IMG/VR virus record: IMGVR_UViG_3300049259_000045
DNA from: an uncultured virus (IMG/VR IMGVR_UViG_3300049259_000045)
Lineage: Duplodnaviria; Heunggongvirae; Uroviricota; Caudoviricetes
Direction: 5' to 3' (one strand)
Length of the DNA stretch: 29,734 nt
Position 1 is the first letter of the stretch, and every line of letters begins with the position of its first letter. Made by a program: the position numbers and the translations under genes. Shown in pieces: positions 7,353-27,947 of the stretch. The notes under the pieces were generated by a model, which saw nothing but the letters and a program-made list of their open reading frames with translations, ran no database searches and was not told where the DNA came from.

Positions 7353-7886
7353 TCAGACCAACTTGAACTTGCGGACCGTCTGGACCCGCCCCTTCTTGTC
7401 CGTGAACGTGAACTCGCCGTTGTCCACGGTGCCCTCGTACGTCCACCGACCGATCTTGGCCTTGACGACCTCGGGGACCTCGACCGGAGCGGGCTCCTGG
7501 TCGGCGGTCACGATGCCCGCGTCCTCGGCCAGCTTGCGCTCGGCGGTCTTGCCCTTCGCGGCCTTCTTCTCCGCCTTGGCCTGCGCCTTCTCGATTCCGC
7601 GCCGGATGCCCTCGGTGACCAGGTGGCCGAAACCGAACTGGTAGGCGACGGATTCCGGGCTGACCAGCTCGCCGGACGCCAGCCGCACCAGGTCACCGGC
7701 GATTCCGCGCCGGATCAGCTCGCCCTTGAGCTTGGCGTCGTGGCCGGGGGCGAACGTCCGCTTCGTGCCCATCCGGCACTGGGGCGCCTTCTCGTCGTCG
7801 CCGAAGTTCACGAAGGTGAAGTTGTTGCAGGCGCAGAGGGTGACACCGGACTCGGTACCAACGGTGTTCGCGGTGAGGTTCGTCAT
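7353..7886 (-). CDS. PGHDAKLK-family protein, copy 4
   Basis: LCAC...QC...FAPGHDAKLKGELI; C-terminal AKIGRWTY...FTFTDKKG domain shared with copy 3. Confidence 0.9.
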   Translation of the reverse strand: MTNLTANTVGTESGVTLCACNNFTFVNFGDDEKAPQCRMGTKRTFAPGHDAKLKGELIRRGIAGDLVRLASGELVSPESVAYQFGFGHLVTEGIRRGIEKAQAKAEKKAAKGKTAERKLAEDAGIVTADQEPAPVEVPEVVKAKIGRWTYEGTVDNGEFTFTDKKGRVQTVRKFKLV

Positions 7887-7935
7887 CTGGACCAGCTCCT
7901 TTTTTCCGGGCTTGGGGGCTGTTCCCCCTTGCCGC

Positions 7936-7972
7936 TAATACAATTAAACCACATCAACGGTCCAACGCACAA
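7936..7972 (-). promoter_or_regulatory. Class A promoter
   Basis: TTGTGC-N18-TTTAAT within TTGATGTGGTTTAATTGTATTA. Confidence 0.8.
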
Positions 7973-7984
7973 CCCCCTTTGACA

Positions 7985-8002
7985 ATGTGATGTACGTCAC
8001 AT
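7985..8002. promoter_or_regulatory. Palindromic operator, CRP-family consensus
   Basis: ATGTGA-TGTACG-TCACAT (TGTGA-N6-TCACA) between divergent promoters. Confidence 0.55.
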
Positions 8003-8042
8003 CCGCTAGCCTCCTCACACAAAAAAGGGGAAGACCCGGTAA

Positions 8043-8072
8043 TTGTGCTGGGACTGCTGGTAGTGTTTTACT
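8043..8072 (+). promoter_or_regulatory. Promoter for the plus-strand mini-operon
   Basis: TTGTGC-N18-TTTACT; TGTTTTACTAGG shared with the promoter at 17360. Confidence 0.6.
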
Positions 8073-8102
8073 AGGAGCGTAGCAGAGAGGAGAGGTCGGA
8101 AA

Positions 8103-8387
8103 ATGGTGAAGCTCGTCAACCCCGGGGTTCTCCCGGAAAGCCGACTGGCGGAGATGTCGCCGGATCGGGCAATTCGATACCTGGAGAACTGGCACCGAAC
8201 CTGGGAGATCGTCAACCCGGACAAGATTGCTGGCCCCACGTTCGCCACCGAGCGTGATTTGAATCACAGGCACGTGTGGCACCTGGATACCAGCAAATTT
8301 CACCCCAGGTTGATCGACAGATGGTTCTGCCGGGTTTGCCAAGCTAACACTTTTGATGACCCTCACGCAACTGAGGAGACAGCATGA
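8103..8387 (+). CDS. Hypothetical protein
   Basis: GGAGAGG RBS; first gene of plus-strand operon; CxxC near C-terminus. Confidence 0.7.
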   Translation: MVKLVNPGVLPESRLAEMSPDRAIRYLENWHRTWEIVNPDKIAGPTFATERDLNHRHVWHLDTSKFHPRLIDRWFCRVCQANTFDDPHATEETA

Positions 8388-8527
8388 CGAACCAGGAAAT
8401 GCAGGACCGCGAGGACAAGTGGGCGGACTTGATCGAGCTGGTCAACGCGGGCAGCATGACGCTTCGCGAGGCCAACGACGAGTTCAGTGCGTGGGCGGCC
8501 AAGTACAAGAACTCGGTGAACGCCTGA
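8384..8527 (+). CDS. Small hypothetical protein (47 aa, MTNQEMQDREDKW...)
   Basis: Not in ORF track; GAGGAG RBS, ATGA overlap upstream, TGATG overlap downstream. Confidence 0.7.
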   Translation: MTNQEMQDREDKWADLIELVNAGSMTLREANDEFSAWAAKYKNSVNA

Positions 8528-8679
8528 TGGCCGGGATGCTGGCCGATAGCCGCGACTACCCGGGATTCGACCAGGAGTGGGCTAACGGCAACGCGATCCG
8601 CCGGATGATCCGGCGCAAGGTGAAGCGTCAAGAAGCCAACGCAGTCCGACGCGCGATCAACGAGGAGCGTTCACAGTGA
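8527..8679 (+). CDS. Small basic protein (50 aa, MAGMLADSRDY...)
   Basis: TGATG coupling upstream, GTGA overlap downstream. Confidence 0.65.
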   Translation: MAGMLADSRDYPGFDQEWANGNAIRRMIRRKVKRQEANAVRRAINEERSQ

Positions 8680-9074
8680 ATGTCGTCTGGATTTTGGAAC
8701 AGATGAACGTGGTAGGAACTGACGACTACATGCGCATCGGAGTCTACGCGGAGCCGCATGACGTCCTGGACGATCTGGCGTTGATCGACCTGGCCCGGGA
8801 CTGGGCCACGCGGGGAGACCTGCGGGTAGGGGTAGACGAAGACCAGTACCTGATGTGGTTGGAGAAGGGATCCGACCGCGTTCAGCTCACCCCCGAACGC
8901 CTCGGCCCGAACACCCCGGAACATGAGATGGTGCTCACCGATCACCACCTTCGTGAACTCCGGCGGACGATGGCGGACCTGATGCACTCGATCAGCACCT
9001 CACCCGGAACCAACGCCCACGCGCCTCTCGGCGGATCGTGGCAGTTCGTACCGGACCCCATGACCGAGTTCTGA
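8676..9074 (+). CDS. Hypothetical protein
   Basis: GAGGAG RBS, followed by hairpin. Confidence 0.75.
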   Translation: MNVVWILEQMNVVGTDDYMRIGVYAEPHDVLDDLALIDLARDWATRGDLRVGVDEDQYLMWLEKGSDRVQLTPERLGPNTPEHEMVLTDHHLRELRRTMADLMHSISTSPGTNAHAPLGGSWQFVPDPMTEF

Positions 9075-9087
9075 CGGCAGACAGCGA

Positions 9088-9122
9088 GCGACCCCCGACC
9101 AGATGTACCGGTCGGGGGTCGC
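9088..9122. terminator. Bidirectional hairpin between convergent genes
   Basis: GCGACCCCCGACC-N9-GGTCGGGGGTCGC. Confidence 0.75.
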
Positions 9123-9134
9123 GGCTTGTCCGGC

Positions 9135-9935
9135 TTACGCCGCGTGTCGTTCAGCTCGGTGGCGTAGATCCCTGTCAGGCCAGCGGGCACGCAGGTAAGC
9201 ACCCCAGTCCGCACGTTCAGCGGAGGTCAGCTGAACCTCTCCGCACATGTCGTGCACCGCGCGAATGTTGTCGATCATCTGCGTGTGACTGACCGGCCTG
9301 GGGAACGGCAGGATGAAGTTCTCTCCAGACGGAGCGGGACAGGCTCGGTACCTTCCTTCAAAAACGTTGACGTTCCAGCGATCCATCCTGGCTCGGATGT
9401 CCAGATCGTGCAGTTGGGCGGGCAGCCATACCCGCGCCGACGCTGGCTTATGAAAGTGCTCGTCCCCCGTGCTGACACCGGCGGTGTTGTCCTCGAACGG
9501 GTGAGGCCACCCCATTTGTTTGATGACCTGGAGGGACCAGACGCGAGTCTCACGCTCGCCAGGTGTGAAGTCCCGCAGAAGACCTATCTCGGGAATTACG
9601 TCATTGCCCCCGATGTATCGCCCGATCCTGGGGATGTCTACGTGTCGATGTACCCCGGGCACGGTTCCCGCAGGGATGATTAGCTGACCCCACGTTGTGG
9701 CCAGATCATCGAGCAGATACCTGGAGTACCCGATATACCAGTCCGGCTTGACAGCCCAGTGCCCGATTTCGTGCAGGGAGTGCCACCAAGTCCCGTAGGA
9801 TCGGTTGCGTTCGGCCGGAAACGGTATATCGATGTACGCGCACAGTTCCAGCAGCTCGATATGACGCTCATCGAGCTGATGAGGTCCGTCAAACGCAGGA
9901 AACATGTGCATCAAGCTGAATGTCGGCAACGACAT
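9135..9935 (-). CDS. Putative zinc metalloprotease-like protein (HExxH)
   Basis: LHEIGHW motif plus downstream E (GERETRVW); 24 bp after traB stop. Confidence 0.6.
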   Translation of the reverse strand: MSLPTFSLMHMFPAFDGPHQLDERHIELLELCAYIDIPFPAERNRSYGTWWHSLHEIGHWAVKPDWYIGYSRYLLDDLATTWGQLIIPAGTVPGVHRHVDIPRIGRYIGGNDVIPEIGLLRDFTPGERETRVWSLQVIKQMGWPHPFEDNTAGVSTGDEHFHKPASARVWLPAQLHDLDIRARMDRWNVNVFEGRYRACPAPSGENFILPFPRPVSHTQMIDNIRAVHDMCGEVQLTSAERADWGAYLRARWPDRDLRHRAERHAA

Positions 9936-9959
9936 GTTACTTCTGTTCCTCTTCCCTGT

Positions 9960-12092
9960 TTAGCCGCGACCCTTGGGCTTCGGCTTGATTGCGTAATGTC
10001 CAAACGAAGGCTGGTGGACCCGCTCGTCGGCTTGCAGCCAGCGGGTGATGGTCCGGATAACCGGAACATTCCGACCAGCGAACGACTTGGACAAGGCTCG
10101 GTGGATGTCGGCAGGTTTGATGCCGTCTTCCCCCGAAGCTTTGACGACTCCGAAGACAATGGTCTTGAAGTCGAGACCTCCCTCTTCGGAGTCGTCTTCG
10201 TCGTCAGTCGGCGGAGTCGGCTCGGGCAGGGCAGCCGACCAGGTACCGGGGTCGTCCCAATCCGCCATCCCTTCCAATTTCATGATCCGCTCGAATTCGT
10301 CACGATAGTCAGGCACTTCGTCACCTCCTCCCGCGTTAGCCATGGCCTCCTGTACCTCTCGCTTGGCTGTTTCCGGGTCTCGGGGAGCGCCGTCGAACGC
10401 ATCGGAGATCGGATCCGGAGCAGGCTTCTCGATGGACACGGGCGGAGTTGACGCTCCACCAGAACCGACCGCTACCGGCGCCAGCTTCATGGCCTCAAGC
10501 CATTCAGCCCGCTGCCAGCGTCCCTCATACTGATCACCGGCTGCCTTGAGGGATTCCTCGTCCAACGCAGCTCGTAGATGAGCTGTTCCGACCGTGATGG
10601 CCCTCATGTGCTCCGGCAGGACGCGGTACCCCTTGAACGCCTTAACCACTCCGGTTTCTCCGTCAGCGTACACGCCGTAACCTCGGTCCGGCATGTCCTG
10701 CGGAGTTACCTTGGCCTCCCAGCCTACCAGGTACGCAATCTCGTCTTGATTCTCCATCATCAAGCCGATCTTGACCCGGGACTGGGACTTGACCATGGGG
10801 TCTCCGAACACGTCGGTAGTCGCCCGGAGACCGCAGGTCAGTTCGTTGACACCGACCGATCGAGCGATGCGCAGAACCTCCATGTAGTTGGCCGCAACCT
10901 TGCGCTTGGCCGCGTTATCCGATCCGGTCAGGGTCTGCTGCCCGAGGAATTCGGCGCCCTCGTCCGAGATGATCAAGATGCCCGGCAACTCGGGGGTCAT
11001 CGGCAGCAGGTCGGTGTTGGCCTCGTACATCAAGGTCTGGTACACGATCTTGCGGTGTTTGGCGATGGCTACCGCAGCAGCGGTCATGCACAGGGCCTCA
11101 GCATCGTCGGTAGCCACCCAGTCAACAGGGGGTCGACCGCCGGGTCGGCCTGCTTCGTCCCACGCCTTCATCCATGGAGTGGCCAGGCCACCGCCGTTGT
11201 AGTCGATGATCCAGACCAGCAGGTTAGGCATCCGGAGAAGCCGGGTCATGATGACCCGGAGTTGGTTGGTCTTACCGGCGCCCTTCTGTCCGACCAACAT
11301 CGCAGAGAATTCGCGCAAGTTGATAAGGGCCAGACTGCTGTCCCGCTCCTTACCGATGTCGAAGTGCTTCTCGAAGTCCAGCGGGGTCACATCGAGCGGA
11401 ACGGGGTGCTCTCCGTCCAGCGCGTTGATGAGCGACACCTTGATGACAGCCAGCCCTCGATTAACACCGGGGCCCACCTCCACGCCGCAGCCCTCGGGCA
11501 GCTTGGCGTCGGACGCCAGACCGTCGCTGAATGCTTTGATAGTGCGGTAGGTGTGTCCGCCGGACGGCAGTTCTACCTCTAGGCTGAACCCTGCATCCTT
11601 GGGCCAACCTTTGTCGTCCACCGCGATTACCTTGGTTCCGCGCAGGTTGCACACGCGGTCGATTCGGTCCGCCCACTCGTTGGCTGTCCCCACCTTAGCC
11701 AGGTAGTCAGCAACGGCCTGAGCCTTCTCGTCGCGCTTCCTCTTGCGGTTGGCCAAGTGAGCACCTACCACGCCCATGAAAGCTGCCGACCCGGCCAACA
11801 CGCCTACCGTGGTCGGGTTGATGGGATTGTTGTACGTCAAGGCGTAGCTCATCCACCCTCCGGCTCCGAGCCAGGACGCGACTCGGAACACCAGGGCTCC
11901 ACCGGTTAGCTTCTCCTCGTCCTCACGGGCGAGACCGCCGATGACTCCGCCGACCGACATCACTCCACCTGCCAGCAGCGGCCAGCCGGGGCCAACGTGC
12001 TCCAGTGACGCCAGTGAAGAAATAGCCATGAGTCCGGTAGCGGCGTTGAGTGTGCCGGATGCCGGTCCGTGTTTGGCTGACCAGTCTGCCAT
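9960..12092 (-). CDS. traB: TraB-type FtsK/SpoIIIE conjugative dsDNA translocase
   Basis: N-terminal TM helices, Walker A GQKGAGKT, Walker B ILIISDE, ARSVGV arginine-finger region, C-terminal winged-helix-like domain; architecture of Streptomyces plasmid/AICE TraB. Confidence 0.85.
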   Translation of the reverse strand: MADWSAKHGPASGTLNAATGLMAISSLASLEHVGPGWPLLAGGVMSVGGVIGGLAREDEEKLTGGALVFRVASWLGAGGWMSYALTYNNPINPTTVGVLAGSAAFMGVVGAHLANRKRKRDEKAQAVADYLAKVGTANEWADRIDRVCNLRGTKVIAVDDKGWPKDAGFSLEVELPSGGHTYRTIKAFSDGLASDAKLPEGCGVEVGPGVNRGLAVIKVSLINALDGEHPVPLDVTPLDFEKHFDIGKERDSSLALINLREFSAMLVGQKGAGKTNQLRVIMTRLLRMPNLLVWIIDYNGGGLATPWMKAWDEAGRPGGRPPVDWVATDDAEALCMTAAAVAIAKHRKIVYQTLMYEANTDLLPMTPELPGILIISDEGAEFLGQQTLTGSDNAAKRKVAANYMEVLRIARSVGVNELTCGLRATTDVFGDPMVKSQSRVKIGLMMENQDEIAYLVGWEAKVTPQDMPDRGYGVYADGETGVVKAFKGYRVLPEHMRAITVGTAHLRAALDEESLKAAGDQYEGRWQRAEWLEAMKLAPVAVGSGGASTPPVSIEKPAPDPISDAFDGAPRDPETAKREVQEAMANAGGGDEVPDYRDEFERIMKLEGMADWDDPGTWSAALPEPTPPTDDEDDSEEGGLDFKTIVFGVVKASGEDGIKPADIHRALSKSFAGRNVPVIRTITRWLQADERVHQPSFGHYAIKPKPKGRG

Positions 12093-12162: not shown

Positions 12163-13641
12163 TCACCGGTTGGCGGTGACGTCCCACTTCTGCTCACCGC
12201 GTCGCGGCGATTCGATCCGAGCAATGTCCACCTGGTGCAGGTTGCGGAACATCGGACCGAGGTCTTCGGCGGACGTGGCTGCTGCGAGCAGCGTCTTGTA
12301 GATGTCGCCCATCGTGTTGATGATGGCCGGGTTGATCGGGTCGTTGTCGTTGGATCGCTGGGTCATCACCCGCAGAGTCTCCGCGACGTTGCGAAGAGCC
12401 AACGGGAGCTGGCTGAGGTCGTTACCGACCTGCATCATGCCCTGGGGGTCGTAAACCGCTGCTGCGCCCATCATCTCGGCGGTAGCGGTCACGAATGCGG
12501 CTGCGGTCATGCTCGGGGTTCCTCCTGTTGTTGTGACCCGACCAAGGCCACCGCCGGTCGAGCCTCCATTCTTTGGGGTTCGTACTGTTGTTCCTACCGT
12601 GCCGGGGGCTGTGGGACTGGTCCCAGTAGCCGGAATTACCGGGGTGGTACCGCCGGGGGCAGCGGTAGACCGTCGATTTTTCCATACCTGCAGTGCTTTC
12701 TTCCACGACCGGCCTCGAATTCCAGCCAGTCCGGCAAAGATGGCAGGCCACAACACTCGCTTGCCCATCTTTGCCAAATTCCGTGCTGCGAACTGCCTCG
12801 GCTTGGCGGTTGCCTTCCAGCCCTTGCGCGCTGTTCCGCCAGCCTTGACAGCAGTACGGCCAACCGCGCGACCTCCGCTCATTGCCGAATTGACGCCGCG
12901 CTTGAGACCGCTGGTCCGGCTCGACGCGTGCCGACCTCCGCCGGACCGACCCTTTGACACACCCAACAGGTCGCCCAAGGTCCGCCCGTTTGAGCTACGC
13001 GGACCACTGGTCCGAGAGCCTGGTCCGGCCGGTCCGCTGGTCCGGCTGCCCGGACCACCAGCCTTAGCGCCTGGTCCGGGCGTGGTCCGGCCGGTCCGCT
13101 GGTCCGGTCCGCTGCTGGTCCGTGGTCCAGAGCCCCCGGATTGTGGTCCGCTGGTCCGTCCTCCTGGTCCGGATCCCAACAGGCCACTGGTCCGGCTGCC
13201 CGAGCCTGGTCCGCTGGTCCGCGATCCTCCACCCGGACCACCCGAGTTGGTCCGTCCGCTGGCGCCTGGTCCGGACCGGACCGGACTGGCTGCCCGGAAT
13301 GCAGCGCCCAGACCGGACCCTGGTCCTCGACGGTACCGGGCGTTGGTCCGGAGCGCGTACACCCCGGCAGCCAGGGCAGCCACCCCAACCACCAGTCCGG
13401 TTTCTGCGCCGCCGATGATCATCGCCGACTCAGCTCCGGCGACAGTGGCCACGTTCACCGCGCCCACCGCCAACGGGACGCCAGGGAGCCCCTTGTTTTT
13501 CTGGGCGCGGGAGCGCTTCGGAGCGGGCTTGGGTGCCGTAGTACCGGCCAGGGGCTGCGGAGCCGCCGGAGGGGCCACCGGAGCCGCCGATGAGGGCGTT
13601 CCGGGGATCTGGATGCTCGGGGTAGGGGCCTGATTGCTCAC
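12163..13641 (-). CDS. TraA-like plasmid transfer accessory protein with Gly/Pro/Ser/Arg low-complexity region
   Basis: Directly upstream of traB; C-terminal FRNLHQVDIARIESPRRGEQKWDV resembles Streptomyces plasmid TraA-type proteins (recognised from memory); AAGGAGG RBS. Confidence 0.65.
   Translation of the reverse strand: MSNQAPTPSIQIPGTPSSAAPVAPPAAPQPLAGTTAPKPAPKRSRAQKNKGLPGVPLAVGAVNVATVAGAESAMIIGGAETGLVVGVAALAAGVYALRTNARYRRGPGSGLGAAFRAASPVRSGPGASGRTNSGGPGGGSRTSGPGSGSRTSGLLGSGPGGRTSGPQSGGSGPRTSSGPDQRTGRTTPGPGAKAGGPGSRTSGPAGPGSRTSGPRSSNGRTLGDLLGVSKGRSGGGRHASSRTSGLKRGVNSAMSGGRAVGRTAVKAGGTARKGWKATAKPRQFAARNLAKMGKRVLWPAIFAGLAGIRGRSWKKALQVWKNRRSTAAPGGTTPVIPATGTSPTAPGTVGTTVRTPKNGGSTGGGLGRVTTTGGTPSMTAAAFVTATAEMMGAAAVYDPQGMMQVGNDLSQLPLALRNVAETLRVMTQRSNDNDPINPAIINTMGDIYKTLLAAATSAEDLGPMFRNLHQVDIARIESPRRGEQKWDVTANR
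12911..13350. repeat. GGWCC repeat cluster 1 (candidate clt/TraB recognition array)
   Basis: 30 GGWCC counted by eye (23 GGTCC, 7 GGACC), including 13 exact CTGGTCCG direct repeats. Confidence 0.8.
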
Positions 13642-13675: not shown

Positions 13676-13790
13676 GACAAATCGGACTCGGACAAGTGGG
13701 ACACGGGGGGTGTGTGGGGTCTGTATACCCCACGACCGGCCCGAGGAGGGGTGTCCTACCCCTGTCCGATCTGTCCGAGTCCCACCTGTC
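13676..13790. repeat. Nested inverted repeats in the spdB-traA intergenic region
   Basis: GGACTCGGACA 13684-13694 / TGTCCGAGTCC 13772-13782; inner hairpins 13714-13733 and 13747-13763. Confidence 0.65.
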
Positions 13791-13807: not shown

Positions 13808-14995
13808 TCACACCGCCTTAAGGTGATCGCCGTAACCGGGCTGAGAACGTCCCCAAGCGGCTACCCTGCCCGCTCGGGTGGTGTTGATGGCCTCTTTGAA
13901 CCCGTCATGGGTTCGGATGACCTCACCGACGTTCCGGCGGTTGATCGTGATGCCGCTCTCAATCATGTACTGGATCGCGCGACGCTCTGTTTCGGTGGCC
14001 TCGAACTCTTCCGGCTGAGCCACCTCGCTCTCAACCGCAGTCGGTTCGGCTTGGACCTGGTCCGCCGGTACAGGCGGAAGTTCGGGGGTGGTCCGGACCT
14101 GGTCCAACATCGGCGCGGTCCGGGCAGGCTGGACCAAGTGGTCCGGCAGCGGGGGGAGCTGGTCTGCGGTCCGGTCCGTGCTGATGTGGCCCCCGACCTC
14201 GTGGACCTGGTCCGCCCGGACCAGCGGACCAGCCTGGTCCAAGGGTGTGGTCCGGCGGGTGAACCAGTTGGTCCGGGCGGACCGCTTGTTGGTCCGGATG
14301 ACCTCGGCAACGGACCACGCTTGGTCCAGGTCTCGCGTACCGGTCCGGACCATCTCGGACCACGCGGTCCACGCGGTCCGGGGGAAGCGGACCCAGCGGA
14401 CCAGACCCATCTTGGGCATCGGCTTGGTCCGCATGTTGGCCTGACGGAGCTTCCGGCGGTGGATCAGTCGAGCGTACAGCTCCCACACCATCAGACCGAT
14501 CATGGTCATTGACGCGAAGGTGACTGACCTCGGGGTCGCCGACCAGTGGTCCGAGTAGTGCCACCACTGCTGCGTAGCCGACCCGGTAGCGAAAGCCCAG
14601 GTCGCCAGCCGGAACTCGATTCCGCTGTCGCCGTCCTTGCGAGCCTCGTGGTACATCCACCCGCAGAACGCGGTGGTGAGTTCGTACGCTGCGGCGTAGA
14701 CGATCGCGGCCGGAAACGTCCAGCCGATGACCTTCATCGCGAATCCGGCCTGACCGGTCCACGCAACGGCCATGGGCGCCAAGATCGGACCGGAAATCAT
14801 CACGGTCCGAGTGGCCAAAGCTACCTTGCTCAGCCGCTGGCGAGTGAGCGCGTCGCGCTCCGCACGGCGGTCGATCTTGTTACGAAGTTCTTCCCGCTCA
14901 TCCAGCCGCTCAAGCTGACGCTTCCGGATCTTGCGATCGACCCGGCGGTCAAGCCAGCCGGAGCGAGGTGTTACCGGGGTGTTTTCCTCGGACAT
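13808..14995 (-). CDS. DUF2637/SpdB-like membrane spread protein
   Basis: N-terminal coiled coil, four TM helices, PKMGLVRWVRFPRTAWTAW motif, Pro-rich linker, C-terminal helical domain. Confidence 0.75.
   Translation of the reverse strand: MSEENTPVTPRSGWLDRRVDRKIRKRQLERLDEREELRNKIDRRAERDALTRQRLSKVALATRTVMISGPILAPMAVAWTGQAGFAMKVIGWTFPAAIVYAAAYELTTAFCGWMYHEARKDGDSGIEFRLATWAFATGSATQQWWHYSDHWSATPRSVTFASMTMIGLMVWELYARLIHRRKLRQANMRTKPMPKMGLVRWVRFPRTAWTAWSEMVRTGTRDLDQAWSVAEVIRTNKRSARTNWFTRRTTPLDQAGPLVRADQVHEVGGHISTDRTADQLPPLPDHLVQPARTAPMLDQVRTTPELPPVPADQVQAEPTAVESEVAQPEEFEATETERRAIQYMIESGITINRRNVGEVIRTHDGFKEAINTTRAGRVAAWGRSQPGYGDHLKAV
14053..14430. repeat. GGWCC repeat cluster 2
   Basis: 29 GGWCC counted by eye (17 GGTCC, 12 GGACC), many as inverted pairs such as GGACCTGGTCC. 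Confidence 0.8.
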
Positions 14996-18098: not shown

Positions 18099-18815
18099 TT
18101 ACTTGTAGGACGGGAACTGCCTATCCACCTGCTTGGCCAGCCTGCGCGCACGACGCGCATCTGACGTCCCCTGAATCGACCGGAGCGTATCGACCAAGCC
18201 GCCCTGCTCCACCACGTAGAATGTGGAGTCGATTTCTATCCAGCCCCCGGGATGCGAACCCCGGTCGATACGAGCGCCGTCGAGCACTAATATCGAAATT
18301 ACGTGAACCCCGAGAGCGTCCCGAACTCGCGAGGTTTCCCACCTGATCGTGTTGACGTTGTCGGTTTTGCACCACGGACCGTAGTACAGATCGTTGCCGC
18401 GCATGCGTACCGGCGCCTTGTTGGCGTGCCAAGCCTTAGTGTCCCCCACTATGACAGCCTGGCCGGACGGGTGAACCCACACATGATCAAGGTTAGCTTT
18501 GGATCGCGGGATGGACCTATCGTCAAACAGGTACCAGCCGTCCCGCCCCAGCCGCCGGACGATCTTCCCTGTACGGGCCTCACCGGCTGCCCCCTGGCGC
18601 CAGCGCTGCCCTACCTCCCGCACGCCACGGAGACCTACCGTGGCCCCTCCGGCGACGCCGAGAACGGCCCCTGCTGCTCCAGCCCCCGGATTGTACGAGA
18701 GGCCCAGAAGACCCCCTCCGACGGCTCCAGCTATCACCCATCCTTTCGCGCTCTTGACTTTGTCGGTTGTCAGTTGCCTGGCCCTGGCCCTGGCAGAAGA
18801 ACCGGCCTTACCCAC
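18099..18815 (-). CDS. NERD (nuclease-related domain) membrane protein
   Basis: Two TM helices then GAAGEART...DDRSIPRSKANLDHVWV...DTKAW PD-(D/E)xK-type motif. Confidence 0.85.
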   Translation of the reverse strand: MGKAGSSARARARQLTTDKVKSAKGWVIAGAVGGGLLGLSYNPGAGAAGAVLGVAGGATVGLRGVREVGQRWRQGAAGEARTGKIVRRLGRDGWYLFDDRSIPRSKANLDHVWVHPSGQAVIVGDTKAWHANKAPVRMRGNDLYYGPWCKTDNVNTIRWETSRVRDALGVHVISILVLDGARIDRGSHPGGWIEIDSTFYVVEQGGLVDTLRSIQGTSDARRARRLAKQVDRQFPSYK

Positions 18816-18838
18816 TTCTACCCCTCCTTAAATACGAC

Positions 18839-18875
18839 CGACCCCCCGGAGCGAATGTGCCGCCTCGGGGGGTCG
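18839..18875 (-). terminator. Hairpin
   Basis: CGACCCCCCG...CGGGGGGTCG downstream of stop at 18897. Confidence 0.6.
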
Positions 18876-18896
18876 ATTCGGTTGTGTGCGCGTCGC

Positions 18897-19577
18897 TTAG
18901 AAAAGCGACTCGTCGTCGGACCCGTTGGCGTCCGCGTTGGTCTCGGCCGAAGTGGCGCCCTTCGCGTCGGCGGTGGCCTGAGCCGCCGCAGCCGCGTCCT
19001 TGGCCTTCTGTTCGGCCGCAACCTTCTTCGCGGCCTCCTTCTCGGCCTTGGCCTTCTCGGCAGCCGCCTTCTTCTCGGCCTTGACCGCGTCGGCCTTGGC
19101 CTTCTTGTCGGCCTTCTCCTTCTCGCGCTCCGCCTTGGCCGCGTCGCGGGTGGCCGCACCGGCAGCCTTGGCGTCGGCCTCGGCCACCGCGCGAGCGATG
19201 CCGTCCCGGACCTTGGGGCCGAAACCGTACTCGTTGGCCGCGTCCTGCGCGCCCATCTCGATGTCCTCGTCGCCGACCCGCTTGTAGACGGACTCGCCGA
19301 CCGCGCCGAGCTTGATCAGGTGGCTCTTGAGCTTGGCATCGTGGCCCGGAGCGAAGTTGCCGCCGGTCGTCTGGGTGCAGGGGATCAGCTCCTCCAGCAC
19401 CGCCTCGCCGTCGACGTCCACGACCTTGCTGTACAGGCTGCACTTGCAGCGGCTCGGAACCTTGGGCTCCTTGGCCGGGGTCGCGGGGGTGACGGCCTCG
19501 GTCGCTTCGGGGGAAGTGCTCTCGGTCGCGTCCGACTCGGCCTGCTCGACCTCGGGCGCCTCGACTTCGGTGCTCAT
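18897..19577 (-). CDS. PGHDAKLK-family protein, copy 5, with Ala/Lys/Glu-rich tail
   Basis: RCKC...PC...FAPGHDAKLKSHLI; KAKADAVKAEKKAAAEKAKAEKEAAKK tail. Confidence 0.9.
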   Translation of the reverse strand: MSTEVEAPEVEQAESDATESTSPEATEAVTPATPAKEPKVPSRCKCSLYSKVVDVDGEAVLEELIPCTQTTGGNFAPGHDAKLKSHLIKLGAVGESVYKRVGDEDIEMGAQDAANEYGFGPKVRDGIARAVAEADAKAAGAATRDAAKAEREKEKADKKAKADAVKAEKKAAAEKAKAEKEAAKKVAAEQKAKDAAAAAQATADAKGATSAETNADANGSDDESLF

Positions 19578-19622
19578 CTGGCTTGTTCTCCTTGTTAGGG
19601 GGTATTTCTTGCTTGTATCCCG

Positions 19623-19690
19623 ATTCTATCACACCAACCGGGGGTTACACAAGTGGGGCGCGGTACCCGGTTGCCCGAGCCCGCGCCCCA
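19623..19690 (-). promoter_or_regulatory. Class C promoter with adjacent hairpin
   Basis: TTGTGT-N18-TAGAAT; stem TGGGGCGCGG/CCGCGCCCCA 19654-19690. Confidence 0.75.
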
Positions 19691-20093: not shown

Positions 20094-20558
20094 TTACGCG
20101 GCCAGCGCCATCGGGCGGCTGGCCCATTCCAGGTCAAAAGCCGACTCCCACAGGAGGTCGGCGAGGGGAGCGTTTCCGTGCGAGTCTGCGCGGTCGGCTT
20201 GATCCATCAGCTTGCCGGTGATCAGGTCCATCACGTCCATCGGGCCGAGGTCGTCGGACAACTCCATCGGGGTGGTCTGCTCTTCGTGGCCGATGACCTC
20301 GAACTTAGCCGACCGAGAGTGGATGACGTAGCCGCTCAGTCGGTCCAACCGGAACGACTTCTCGATGTTGTCTTCATCCAGGTCCCGACCCACGATCGAG
20401 ATGTTGCCGTCCTGGCTGACCTTGGCGTCGGTCGGCTCGATGTGCCGGGTGCGGGTCTCCTCACCCGGCTTGGTGTACAGGAACGTGATCCGGTGGCCGC
20501 GCTCGGACGCACGCAGGAAGTGGACCAACGTCCAGTACTCGCTGCGGATCTTGCGCAT
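20094..20558 (-). CDS. Stand-alone WYL-domain protein
   Basis: ITFLYTK...RTRHIEP...IVGRD...KSFRLDRL; ATG 20558 with GGGAGG RBS. Confidence 0.85.
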   Translation of the reverse strand: MRKIRSEYWTLVHFLRASERGHRITFLYTKPGEETRTRHIEPTDAKVSQDGNISIVGRDLDEDNIEKSFRLDRLSGYVIHSRSAKFEVIGHEEQTTPMELSDDLGPMDVMDLITGKLMDQADRADSHGNAPLADLLWESAFDLEWASRPMALAA

Positions 20559-20595
20559 TCGGTGCCTCCCGGATCGTCCTCGTTCTTGTAGTACC

Positions 20596-20668
20596 ATTCT
20601 ACCATGGCAGTAGGAGCCCCCACAAGTTGCCGCCCCTGACCGGATCAGCTGGTCAGGGGCGGCAACTT
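20596..20668 (-). promoter_or_regulatory. Class C promoter overlapping hairpin base
   Basis: TTGTGG-N18-TAGAAT; 18-bp stem 20624-20641/20651-20668. Confidence 0.8.
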
Positions 20669-26561: not shown

Positions 26562-27947
26562 TCAGTTCTCGGGAAGGTCCCGACCGATCATCCGAGCCAG
26601 GTAGTCGAACACGTGCCGGGTGCCGGAGATTTGCGCGTTGAAGTCGCACGCCTCCTGCAAGTCGACCCAGTTCGGATTGAACTCCGGGAAGTTCTCATCG
26701 GTGATTTTGCCGGTCCTGATCCACATCCGAGCGGTCGAGGTTACGTCTCGATGGAACTTGATGCCGAGACCTCGATTGTAGTTGTCGAACGCCTCCTTGA
26801 CCAGGCTCCAAGCGGTGTCGGGGTCGAGGCCCTGCCGGACCAGCCAAGTCCGCGCGGTGGCGCTGTTGATCTCGGACTCGAACCGATAGACGTTGTCGAG
26901 CATCTTGTCTGTGTTGACCTGCAGGTTGGCGATGAGGTCAGTTGCCTTAACCACCATGTGGTCCAGCACGATGAGGGCGGTCGGCAGGGCCACACGCTCG
27001 ACACTACTGTGGCTGATATCGCGCTCGTGGTAGAGGGCAACATCCTCCAGCATCGGACCGACCTGCGCCCGGACCAACCTGGCCAGGCCGGTCAGGTTCT
27101 CGCTGGTGATCGGATTGCGCTTGTGCGGCATCGCCGACGAGCCCACTCGGTTGGCAGCGTCCCCTTCGGCCAGCTCGCCCACCTCGGATTGCATCGACAA
27201 GCGGACCTCCAAGGCCAGCGTCTCGATGACGGAAGCGGCCTGAGCGCACGCAAACACCAGGTCGGCGAGGCTGTCCCTGGCCACCACCTGGGTTGCTGTC
27301 ATCGGAGGTCGTCCCTCCGGACCGATCAAGAGTTGAGCAAACGCCAACTCCTGCTCTCGGGTAACGTGCTTGTAGTCGCCGACCGGACCAGACATCTTCG
27401 GCCGTCCGGCAGCCCTGGCTGCCGACCTGAGGTGACTGTGCGCCCGAACCGCCATGTGCGTGATGTCGGCAACTCGATAGCCCCAGGTGCTGACCTCAGC
27501 AATCTGGCCATGCGTTCGGGCCACCCGCAACGTTTTGCGATGCTGCAGGGAATGCTCCACCATCGTCCGGATGAATCGATCCATGTGCCGGTGGATGATC
27601 ATCTCGGAATTGATCACGGTCAGGGCCAGAGCCGAGTCTACCAGGTCAGAGCTGGTCATTCCTCGGTGCACCCAACCGTGAGCCGCCGGGTCCATCCCGT
27701 TCTTCCAGGCTGCCAGGAAAGCCACCACGTCGTGACCGCTCCTGGCCTCTTCTGCGGCCACCTGATCGGGGGTGGGCACCGCAGCCGCCGTCATGGCCGT
27801 GATGACCTCCGAGGGGGCGCCCTGGGCCTTCGCGGCGGTGAACTCCACAGCGGCCCAGTTCCGGTATCGGGTCTCCTCGGACCAGATTCCGGCCATCTCC
27901 GGCCCGATGTACCGCTTGGGTACCGGGATTTGATCGAGACTGTTCAC
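26562..27947 (-). CDS. purB: Adenylosuccinate lyase
   Basis: Fumarase/ASL signature GSSAMPHKRNP, plus HDVVAF, VHRGMTSSD, ARTHGQ, HERDISHSSVER motifs. Confidence 0.92.
   Translation of the reverse strand: MNSLDQIPVPKRYIGPEMAGIWSEETRYRNWAAVEFTAAKAQGAPSEVITAMTAAAVPTPDQVAAEEARSGHDVVAFLAAWKNGMDPAAHGWVHRGMTSSDLVDSALALTVINSEMIIHRHMDRFIRTMVEHSLQHRKTLRVARTHGQIAEVSTWGYRVADITHMAVRAHSHLRSAARAAGRPKMSGPVGDYKHVTREQELAFAQLLIGPEGRPPMTATQVVARDSLADLVFACAQAASVIETLALEVRLSMQSEVGELAEGDAANRVGSSAMPHKRNPITSENLTGLARLVRAQVGPMLEDVALYHERDISHSSVERVALPTALIVLDHMVVKATDLIANLQVNTDKMLDNVYRFESEINSATARTWLVRQGLDPDTAWSLVKEAFDNYNRGLGIKFHRDVTSTARMWIRTGKITDENFPEFNPNWVDLQEACDFNAQISGTRHVFDYLARMIGRDLPEN

Follow-up and report, generated by a model that had tools for sequence, protein, structure and literature searches.

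Arrays of a lineage-specific DNA word inside two genes upstream of a TraB-like pump change in step with the C-terminal tail of an SpdB2-like membrane protein

The arrays of a short DNA word, with the consensus cCGGACCAg, were analyzed in a stretch of 29,734 nucleotides from an uncultured virus of the Caudoviricetes (IMG/VR record IMGVR_UViG_3300049259_000045), which is referred to here as the window. The word fills parts of two genes that lie upstream of a gene for a TraB/FtsK-like membrane DNA translocase (the pump): open reading frame (ORF) A, directly upstream of the pump gene, and ORF B, upstream of ORF A, which encodes a DUF2637/SpdB2-like membrane protein. The word is selected as DNA and confined to these two genes, the words of related elements are lineage specific at the same two gene positions, and differences in the word go together with differences in the C-terminal tail of ORF B. 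Based on these sequence comparisons, we suggest, with a probability of about one half, that the arrays are docking sites for the tail of ORF B and tether the DNA of the element to the membrane transfer machinery. Such a docking locus is close in function to the clt locus that a first-pass annotation of this DNA had proposed, but it has another reader; that annotation was probably right on the overprinting and on the module and wrong on the reader.

Word arrays in the window

The repeats had been described as 30 GGWCC and 13 exact copies of a longer repeat, in mostly one orientation, within about 440 bp of ORF A (array A), and an exact recount agrees with this. The motif listing of the window gives 30 GGWCC in the array, where about 1.7 per 440 bp are expected from the density outside the arrays (about 4 per kb), and 13 exact CTGGTCCG, every one of them on the + strand. 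The whole window holds 23 CTGGTCCG, as against 2.25 ± 1.40 in 100 dinucleotide-preserving shuffles of the window (largest count, 6; 0 of 100 reached 23). Read on the coding (−) strand of ORF A, the 13 copies are CGGACCAG. Seven of them are in frame 0 (Arg-Thr-Ser), five in frame 2 (x-Gly-Pro-Gly), and one in frame 1 (Pro-Asp-Gln), as had been noticed on first pass from the peptides Arg-Thr, Gly-Pro, and Asp-Gln. The core 6-mer CGGACC occurs in ORF A 21 times in the sense direction (12/1/8 by frame) and 8 times in the antisense direction. The word is asymmetric and 7 to 8 bp long; the spacing of the copies in array A is irregular, with only short local runs of period 8 to 9 reported by Tandem Repeats Finder. 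GGWCC is a type II restriction site, and a restriction-site reading was considered and dropped because the selected word is longer than GGWCC and asymmetric.

A second array (array B), absent from the first-pass annotation, was found in ORF B, where it spans the juxtamembrane helices and the disordered linker of the protein. ORF B overall carries 15 sense and 10 antisense copies of CGGACC, and both arrays together contain about 54 CGGACC cores in 2.8 kb.

The word contains no stop codon in any frame, so that all six frames are open across the array, and an open frame alone is therefore no evidence for coding. In 38 of 38 related loci, one frame links a conserved Ala/Gly/Val-rich hydrophobic N-terminus, the array, and a conserved C-terminal domain into an ORF of 446 to 651 amino acids (aa), and array A is therefore translated as a linker. 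The hydropathy threshold for the N-terminal segment was passed by 29 of the 38, and the remaining 9 have a similar segment with lower scores. In ORF A, the hydrophobic N-terminal segment is followed by the linker that is saturated with the word, then by a basic stretch, and finally by a helical C-terminal domain, which is conserved.

Selection on the DNA word

The low-complexity peptide of ORF A had been regarded as a by-product of selection at the DNA level, which was largely borne out by the results described in this section. The opposite explanation is that the arrays have no function as DNA and arose by slippage and codon bias in a fast-evolving Gly/Pro/Ser/Arg/Thr linker. It is favored by the disorder of the encoded linker (residues 264 to 327 of ORF B; predicted local distance difference test [pLDDT], <50), by the presence of short local tandem runs, and by one relative, L012, whose top 6-mer GTAGCG is in a single frame (15 of 15; 0/15/0), as for a duplicated Gly-Ser unit. 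However, when the peptide of array A was held fixed and its codons were resampled in 5,000 draws with the codon usage of the window, only 0.77 ± 0.81 CGGACCAG (maximum, 5) were obtained, compared with the 13 observed, and the array's own skewed codon usage gave 3.6 ± 1.6, which is still below 13. The Pro codon CCA makes up 53% in the array versus 7% elsewhere, and the Arg codon CGG makes up 81% versus 28%. The word is spelled by the rare codons CCA and GGA, and it stands in three frames, on both strands, in two genes, and also in a conserved nonrepetitive segment.

The comparison with a relative points in the same direction. Locus L003, an IMG/VR record of 89 kb (CheckV, 99%), has a TraB-like pump 75% identical to that of the window. 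The flanking domains of its ORF A and ORF B align with those of the window almost without gaps; the linkers contain indels and differ from those of the window in length and peptide. CGGACC is nevertheless present in 27 sense and 8 antisense copies in its ORF A and in 13 and 6 copies in its ORF B. Thus, the word was kept while the peptides diverged, the reverse of what the first-pass annotation had listed as refuting its claim, namely, homologs that keep the amino-acid repeats and lose the DNA motif. Within the 89-kb record, 36 of 60 CGGACCA lie inside 1.6 kb, and the other 24, spread over 87.5 kb, are similar in number to the total of a control word (26); outside the two arrays, the word is at the background level in this record, which serves as a proxy for the genome of the window. 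In the conserved juxtamembrane segment of ORF B, homologous codons read Arg-Thr (CGG ACC) in the window clade versus Arg-Ile (CGG ATC) in the sister clade. In many relatives, moreover, ORF A carries its word in reverse-complement form relative to ORF B. The resampling, the drift and confinement in L003, and the Arg-Thr/Arg-Ile codons make a pure slippage by-product unlikely; this explanation is largely refuted, and we regard it as very improbable.

Words in related loci

Related loci were taken from viral contigs (33 loci) and genome contigs (54 loci). In most relatives that are close enough, the strongest local 7-mers lie about 1.1 to 1.4 kb (in ORF A) and 2.0 to 2.4 kb (in ORF B) upstream of the pump. 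The words found there and the tail classes of ORF B that accompany them are listed in Table 1.

Table 1. Words in the arrays of related loci and the corresponding tail classes of ORF B
Word	Loci	Tail class (word assigned)
cCGGACCA	Window, L003	INTTRAG.VAAWGR (CGGACC)
CGGATC(T/G)	L005-L010; phage Galactica more weakly	IATKRAA..A.WGR (CGGATC)
CGCCCCG	Six loci	SRRH[GA]Q.LR (CGCCCCG)
CGCCACgg	Six loci	SRQ[YF]A.KLR (CGCCACG)
cCGCTACgg	Ten or eleven loci	SRAQAGKIR / SEQQARKIR (CGCTACG)
CCGCCAG, CCGAAGC, CGAACCA, CCGGGCA, CGGAACC	One locus each	

Several loci spread their word over all three frames (11/6/8; 9/8/12). The reverse-complement relation between the words of the two genes is found in many Streptomyces-type loci, with orientation counts in ORF A versus ORF B of 25:4 versus 0:20 in L002 and 29:6 versus 0:21 in L049. 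The two arrays run in the same direction in the window, L003, and L026 and are mutually inverted in most Streptomyces-type loci (the orientation set examined included L002, L011, L023, L044, L045, and L049).

Covariation of the word with the tail of ORF B

The pump was aligned over its C-terminal domain in 35 loci, and L024, which is cut by a contig end, was excluded from the counts, so that the statistics given here refer to 34 loci. Tail classes were drawn from the last 45 to 70 residues of ORF B, and pair identities were calculated from the last 45 aa. When two tails were at least 80% identical, the loci had the same word in 33 of 33 pairs; at an identity of at least 60%, this held for 65 of 68 pairs. 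Among six protein segments, the tail showed the highest Spearman correlation with word similarity (0.74; 0.55 as a partial correlation on pump-motor identity), and the corresponding values were 0.58 and 0.29 for the C-terminal domain of TraB and 0.64 and 0.30 for that of ORF A. As a linkage control, segments as near the arrays as the tail were used: at an identity of at least 60%, the same word was found in 17 of 26 pairs for the membrane part of ORF B and in 77 of 193 pairs for the C-terminal domain of ORF A.

The prediction that CGGATC follows the IATKRAA tail held. The region from ORF B to ORF A was enriched in CGGATC only with this tail (27/7, 17/7, 21/8, 14/6, 12/11, and 14/7 copies inside/outside), and the counts were 3/11 in the window and 4/11 in L003. 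The amino acids of the linkers follow the same division among the 120 homologs of ORF B listed: behind NT[TA]RAG tails (5 proteins), the linkers contain 5.7 to 7 Arg-Thr and no Arg-Ile, and behind ATKRAA tails (51 proteins), they contain 1.4 Arg-Thr and 1.7 Arg-Ile.

The TraB-like pump as a candidate reader

In the first-pass annotation, CGGACCAG was taken as the recognition sequence (TRS) of the cognate TraB, with array A serving as a clt that loads and orients the TraB-like hexamer through its C-terminal winged helix. The position of the array is suitable for this role, the 13 co-oriented CGGACCAG lying 70 to 1,260 bp upstream of the pump gene, and the co-orientation of all of these 8-mers is as for a polar translocase signal. 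Helix 3 of TraB also differs between the window clade and the CGGATC clade, and a search for another candidate TraB site in the neighborhood of the pump gene was negative. Positions 7800 to 10200 of the window contain no conspicuous repeat family. The region at the 3′ end of the pump gene, scanned in 15 relatives that have the helix PHAATIGRWL and in 7 phage-type loci including the window, gave no 7-mer or 8-mer that was shared or locally enriched, apart from GC-rich low-complexity sequence. Exact copies of GACCCGGA, the TRS of pSVH1 according to the first-pass annotation, were scattered and unclustered in the 17 loci scanned.

However, the annotation also proposed to check whether relatives with a different helix 3 of TraB have a different repeat, and the relatives do not follow this rule. 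In 55 of the 107 locus pairs in which helix 3 plus the wing was at least 80% identical, the words differed. The helix PHAATIGRWL occurs with CGCCCCG, CGCCACG, and CGCTACG, and the helix PSRSAITDWLKAEP occurs with four words (L013, L015, L030, and L043). Conversely, CGCCACG is found with at least four helix variants (PHAATIGRWL in L011, PNTTVIARWL in L020, PSPETIGRWL in L017, and PN..VIGRWL in L041, L026, and L084), and CGGATC is found with five. No column of the alignment of the TraB winged helix-turn-helix tracks the word within the Streptomyces-type groups. The word classes do not group together in a maximum-likelihood tree built from the pump motor, although each retains its matching tail; CGCCACG loci appear at two places, once as the sister of the CGCCCCG clade and once as the sister of the main CGCTACG clade, each with support of 100/99. 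Moreover, the clt loci described so far are located at the 3′ end of tra genes or beyond it and do not consist of about 50 copies across two upstream genes. The identification of CGGACCAG as the cognate TRS is therefore unsupported, the word following instead the tail of the upstream membrane protein. For the element of the window itself, TraB is disfavored as the reader solely by this family-wide pattern. We consider TraB an unlikely reader and do not place it lower because helix 3 covaries with the word between the two clades, the words are co-oriented, and no other TraB site was found.

Other readers and other purposes

About as unlikely is another reader, such as the C-terminal domain of ORF A or a nucleoid protein of the host, or another purpose, such as autoregulation or segregational stability; in one variant, the tail of ORF B would act as a roadblock in its own toxic operon. 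At high identity, the C-terminal domain of ORF A follows the word as closely as the tail does, with the same word in 38 of 38 pairs that are at least 80% identical, but in the linkage control it kept the word in just 77 of 193 pairs. It is acidic to neutral and gave no lead in family or atlas searches. A host factor fails to explain why the words differ between elements of similar hosts, and roughly fifty sites are many for a simple operator.

Purposes other than transfer have precedents in the published systems. SpdA2 of pIJ101 binds 12-bp sps palindromes inside its own coding region (PMC4170104), and the removal of these sites by synonymous recoding reduced plasmid stability and left transfer and pock formation unchanged (PMC4170104, Thoma et al. 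2014). In addition, traB-traR are Kil-Kor pairs, so that the control of expression matters (PMC4447253).

A proposed docking locus for ORF B

We prefer the tail of ORF B as the reader. The C-terminal tail, a putative helix-turn-helix domain on the cytoplasmic side, would bind the word, hanging from a disordered linker of about 80 residues. If ORF B is oligomeric, many tails would hold many words, and the DNA of the element would be pinned to the membrane beside the pump, a product of the same operon. The arrays would then serve as a cis docking locus for transfer, spreading, or positioning.

The predicted structure of ORF B is consistent with this arrangement. Both termini are probably cytoplasmic, since basic residues precede the first membrane helix and also follow the last one. 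The AlphaFold model, which was made from 43 sequences and has a mean pLDDT of 76, predicts a long N-terminal helix (residues 14 to 90) that runs into the membrane region, helices at residues 94 to 120, 126 to 147, and 155 to 185, and juxtamembrane helices. In the tail, three helices (residues 335 to 347, 353 to 362, and 372 to 384) have a pLDDT of 93 to 96 in the full model, and the same three helices were obtained when the tail was folded alone (pLDDT, 86; predicted template modeling score, 0.73). The low root-mean-square deviation (rmsd) neighbors of the tail, all at sub-significant scores, include winged-helix DNA binders, namely, the FtsK gamma domain (2ve8/2ve9), the arginine repressor, and PadR. 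For the FtsK gamma domain, VIA gave a Z of 4.8 with an rmsd of 2.4 Å over 53 residues, and Foldseek gave 1.8 Å over 52 columns with an E value of 2.3.

Several points weigh against this reading. In fold searches with the ORF B model and with the tail alone, no match reached a Foldseek E value of ≤0.001 (the E values of the fold matches were >1), and the VIA Z was at most 5.8, where the significance bar is a Z of 6 and the top two rows are ribosomal stalk helices with an rmsd of >5 Å. The winged-helix reading of the tail is therefore a lead only, and the tail, like the C-terminal pieces of ORF A and the pump, had no match in Pfam. The area under the curve for separating same-word from different-word pairs was practically equal for the C-terminal domain of ORF A (0.942) and the tail (0.943), and since the tail is encoded between the two arrays, some covariation would arise from linkage alone. 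The locus pairs depend on one another, and the motor tree has no resolved backbone in its Streptomyces-type part, so that independent switches of the word can be counted as at least two or three and no finer. The pump provides further objections: helix 3 of TraB changes together with the word between the window clade and the CGGATC clade, the searches around the pump gene gave no alternative TraB site, and the words inside one array are 80 to 100% co-oriented, which is expected of a polar translocase signal and is not needed by a plain tether. Finally, the binding of double-stranded DNA (dsDNA) by SpdB2 of pSVH1 is described as nonspecific (PMC4447253), unlike the specific word that would be read here.

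A more far-reaching form of the docking reading is possible, although clearly less probable. The word and the tail may together form an exchangeable specificity cassette, by which ORF B, with some fifty copies of the word in its own linker codons and those of its neighbor, would capture its own DNA and pass it to the TraB-type pump. The capture could occur during the membrane insertion of ORF B beside its own gene, resulting in self-addressed loading in cis. A tailed-phage genome could thereby move from one hyphal compartment to another with no need for virions, and the words, being lineage specific, would be an identity code that separates co-resident elements.

The element and its genes

The window is part of a contig of 91.7 kb. 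The features of the window are collected in Table 2. The collagen-repeat tail fiber gene places the window in a tailed-phage genome, and the element is, by its gene content, a phage or phage-plasmid that resembles the Hiyaavirus phages and carries a TraB/Spd module of the plasmid type.

Table 2. Features of the window
Feature	Position	Strand	Remarks
Pump, TraB/FtsK-like membrane DNA translocase	9960..12092	−	710 aa; Walker A GQKGAGKTN, DEGAE box
Pump C-terminal domain	9963..10190	−	Aligns with the winged-helix region of relatives; helix 3 VPVIRTITRWLQADERV; rival candidate reader
ORF A	12163..13641	−	492 aa; no known family
Array A	12911..13350	−	30 GGWCC; consensus cCGGACCAg; linker of ORF A, about residues 98-245; Gly/Ser/Arg/Thr/Pro
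ORF B	13808..14995	−	395 aa; DUF2637/SpdB2-like membrane protein
ORF B tail	13811..14020	−	Residues 326-395; proposed recognition helix INTTRAGRVAAWGR; proposed reader of the word
Array B	14053..14430	−	29 GGWCC; about residues 188-314 of ORF B
Collagen-repeat tail fiber gene	46-804	−	PF01391, E 7.6e-11; phrog_18350, E 5e-32
Hairpin	9088-9122		Perfect, 13 nt, GCGACCCCCGACC / GGTCGGGGGTCGC; just past ORF 9135..9935; terminator-like
Inverted repeat	10143-10196		Imperfect, 26 nt; in the 3′ part of the pump gene
Tandem pair	13676-13706		15 bp, GACAAATCGGACACG, 2.1 copies; in the 166-bp ORF B/ORF A spacer
NERD gene	18099-18815	−	Nuclease related; upstream of the transfer module
Nested tandem repeats	18991-19136		Periods 48, 33, 18, 15; unit rich in GCCTTCTT/GGCCTT; inside ORF 18808..19632 (−); unrelated to the CGGACC word
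WYL gene	20094-20597	−	Upstream of the transfer module
Lyase_1 gene	26562-27947	−	Fumarate/adenylosuccinate lyase family; upstream of the transfer module

The first-pass annotation had assigned the array to a transfer module of the TraB/Spd type, beside a gene for a TraB/FtsK-like protein, and the PHROGs and tblastn results support this. The pump matched phrog_31069 (FtsK/SpoIIIE-like protein) with an E value of 2.8e-92. By tblastn, it shares 41 to 43% identity, with 99% of its length aligned, with the FtsK-like translocases of the Streptomyces phages Hiyaa, Galactica, Keanu, and Spocter, and it is 29 to 38% identical to genes of Streptomyces, Frankia, and other actinomycete plasmids, some of which are annotated as DNA translocase FtsK. 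Hydrophobic segments are located at its N-terminus, the Walker A motif (GxxGxGKT) and the DE box are invariant across 23 aligned homologs, and the C-terminal domain of about 65 aa, conserved and alignable throughout the family, has no Pfam match. Phage Galactica and a Streptomyces plasmid share the order of membrane protein, (small ORF), membrane protein, and translocase with the window, and the first gene of this order is annotated as DUF2637 in the plasmid. Other searches with the pump were less informative: PF01580 was not matched, the sole Pfam match being DUF87 at an E value of 0.03; PADLOC gave only a weak P-loop match; the PDB sequence search gave nothing relevant; and a metagenome scan with the protein gave 14 pattern matches, of which 0 were confirmed. 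At the default thresholds, neither ORF A nor ORF B nor the pump was matched by Pfam (39 ORFs) or NCBIfam (12 ORFs). Some of the TraB-like relatives (L017, L023, L026, L044, L084, and P0117) carry an extra C-terminal domain that resembles the FtsK gamma domain and is PF09397 in P0117; these pumps would each have two DNA-reading modules.

ORF B matched PF10935 (DUF2637) with 14.1 bits (E value, 0.045), which is under the 22.8-bit cutoff. This family was found on 18 of 120 ORF B homologs among the matches listed, and the plasmid homolog is annotated as DUF2637. One homolog of ORF B, P0163, carries HNH_3 and NUMOD4, which suggests a homing-endonuclease fusion or insertion. The tandem pair in the ORF B/ORF A spacer is a possible part of a promoter or an operator.

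ORF A had no match in Pfam, NCBIfam, or PHROGs, and an ESM Atlas search with its C-terminal half returned unnamed clusters only; its earlier label as traA-like is not supported by any library searched. In plasmid NZ_CP108596.1 (locus L002, 4410 to 5255), the gene table is empty over the array part of the ORF A homolog: the annotated gene of 242 aa begins just past the array, and the open frame has 495 aa. Annotation pipelines at times leave the array unannotated or split the gene, and the word arrays may thus cause systematic misannotation.

Implications

If the docking reading is correct, the cis site of this family of actinomycete dsDNA transfer systems would be a dense array in coding sequence with an SpdB2-like reader and not a small intergenic clt. 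A specific role in DNA recognition would be given to the Spd protein that is the most conserved and the least understood, and the hypervariable linkers of ORF A- and ORF B-type genes would be explained. The arrays would also exemplify dual coding in an extreme form, with the choice of amino acid (Thr versus Ile) being dictated by a binding word. Word and tail pairs that are one or two bases and a few residues apart, such as CGGACC/NTTRAG and CGGATC/ATKRAA, would provide a natural series for the evolution of specificity.

Comparison with known systems

In the known clt regions, direct 8-bp repeats are recognized by the cognate TraB (PMC4447253, PMC4170104). The clt of pJV1 has nine 9-bp repeats, and that of pWTY27 is 175 bp at the end of traA, composed of 16 bp inside traA and 159 bp adjacent to it (PMC3583192). 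The module in the window resembles the clt/TRS systems of pSVH1, pJV1, and pWTY27 in its FtsK-like membrane pump with a putative DNA-reading C-terminal domain, in its tra/spd operon, and in the nearby cluster of short (7- to 9-bp), mostly direct, element-specific repeats. In contrast to clt, which extends for 50 to 175 bp at or after the end of a tra gene (PMC3583192), about 50 repeats are located here in two upstream coding regions, and unlike the TRS, the present words fail to covary with helix 3 of TraB.

The sps sites of SpdA2 are similar in that sites inside genes of the Spd module shape the peptide (SRDD/E at sps and Thr/Ile here), with binding being predicted in the present case. However, sps is described as a 12-bp palindrome in 2 to 3 copies that is nearly constant across plasmids, whereas the word is asymmetric, 7 to 8 bp long, present in about 54 copies, and lineage specific. 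The presumed reader is also different, being the tail of a polytopic membrane protein of 395 aa and not a small soluble protein such as SpdA is described to be.

By architecture, ORF B is like SpdB2 of pSVH1: it starts with a coiled-coil-like helix, has about four membrane helices, and ends in a long C-terminal part, and it is encoded beside traB. SpdB2 of pSVH1 (Tiffert et al. 2007, as cited; Thoma et al. 2015) is described as an oligomeric, dsDNA-binding partner of TraB with an N-terminal coiled coil and a prediction of four membrane helices (PMC4447253), and homologs of SpdB2 are said to be present on actinophages (PMC4447253, Thoma et al. 2015). Our literature search, which did not cover the original paper on TraB and the TRS or the field's reviews, found no account of word arrays in spdB-type or DUF2637 genes or in the corresponding genes of plasmid-phages and Hiyaavirus phages.

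In the FtsK gamma domain with the FtsK-orienting polar sequences (KOPS) and in SpoIIIE with its recognition sequences (SRS), a small winged-helix domain reads an asymmetric 8-bp word. The present words are co-oriented within an array, and the FtsK gamma domain is the best low-rmsd neighbor of the tail, at a sub-significant score. KOPS occur genome-wide with strand polarity, whereas 36 of 60 copies of the word are within 1.6 kb of the 89-kb relative, and unlike in the FtsK/KOPS system, the proposed reader is separate from the motor protein.

At the level of the whole element, the window is comparable to the pZL12/phiZL12 plasmid-phages and the Hiyaavirus phages, in which a tailed-phage genome carries a plasmid-type tra gene with adjacent genes for membrane proteins. 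The G+C content of the window is about 62%, unlike that of the Streptomyces relatives (68 to 74%). In conclusion, position, number, and covariation set the arrays apart from clt, and form, number, variability, and the presumed reader set them apart from sps.

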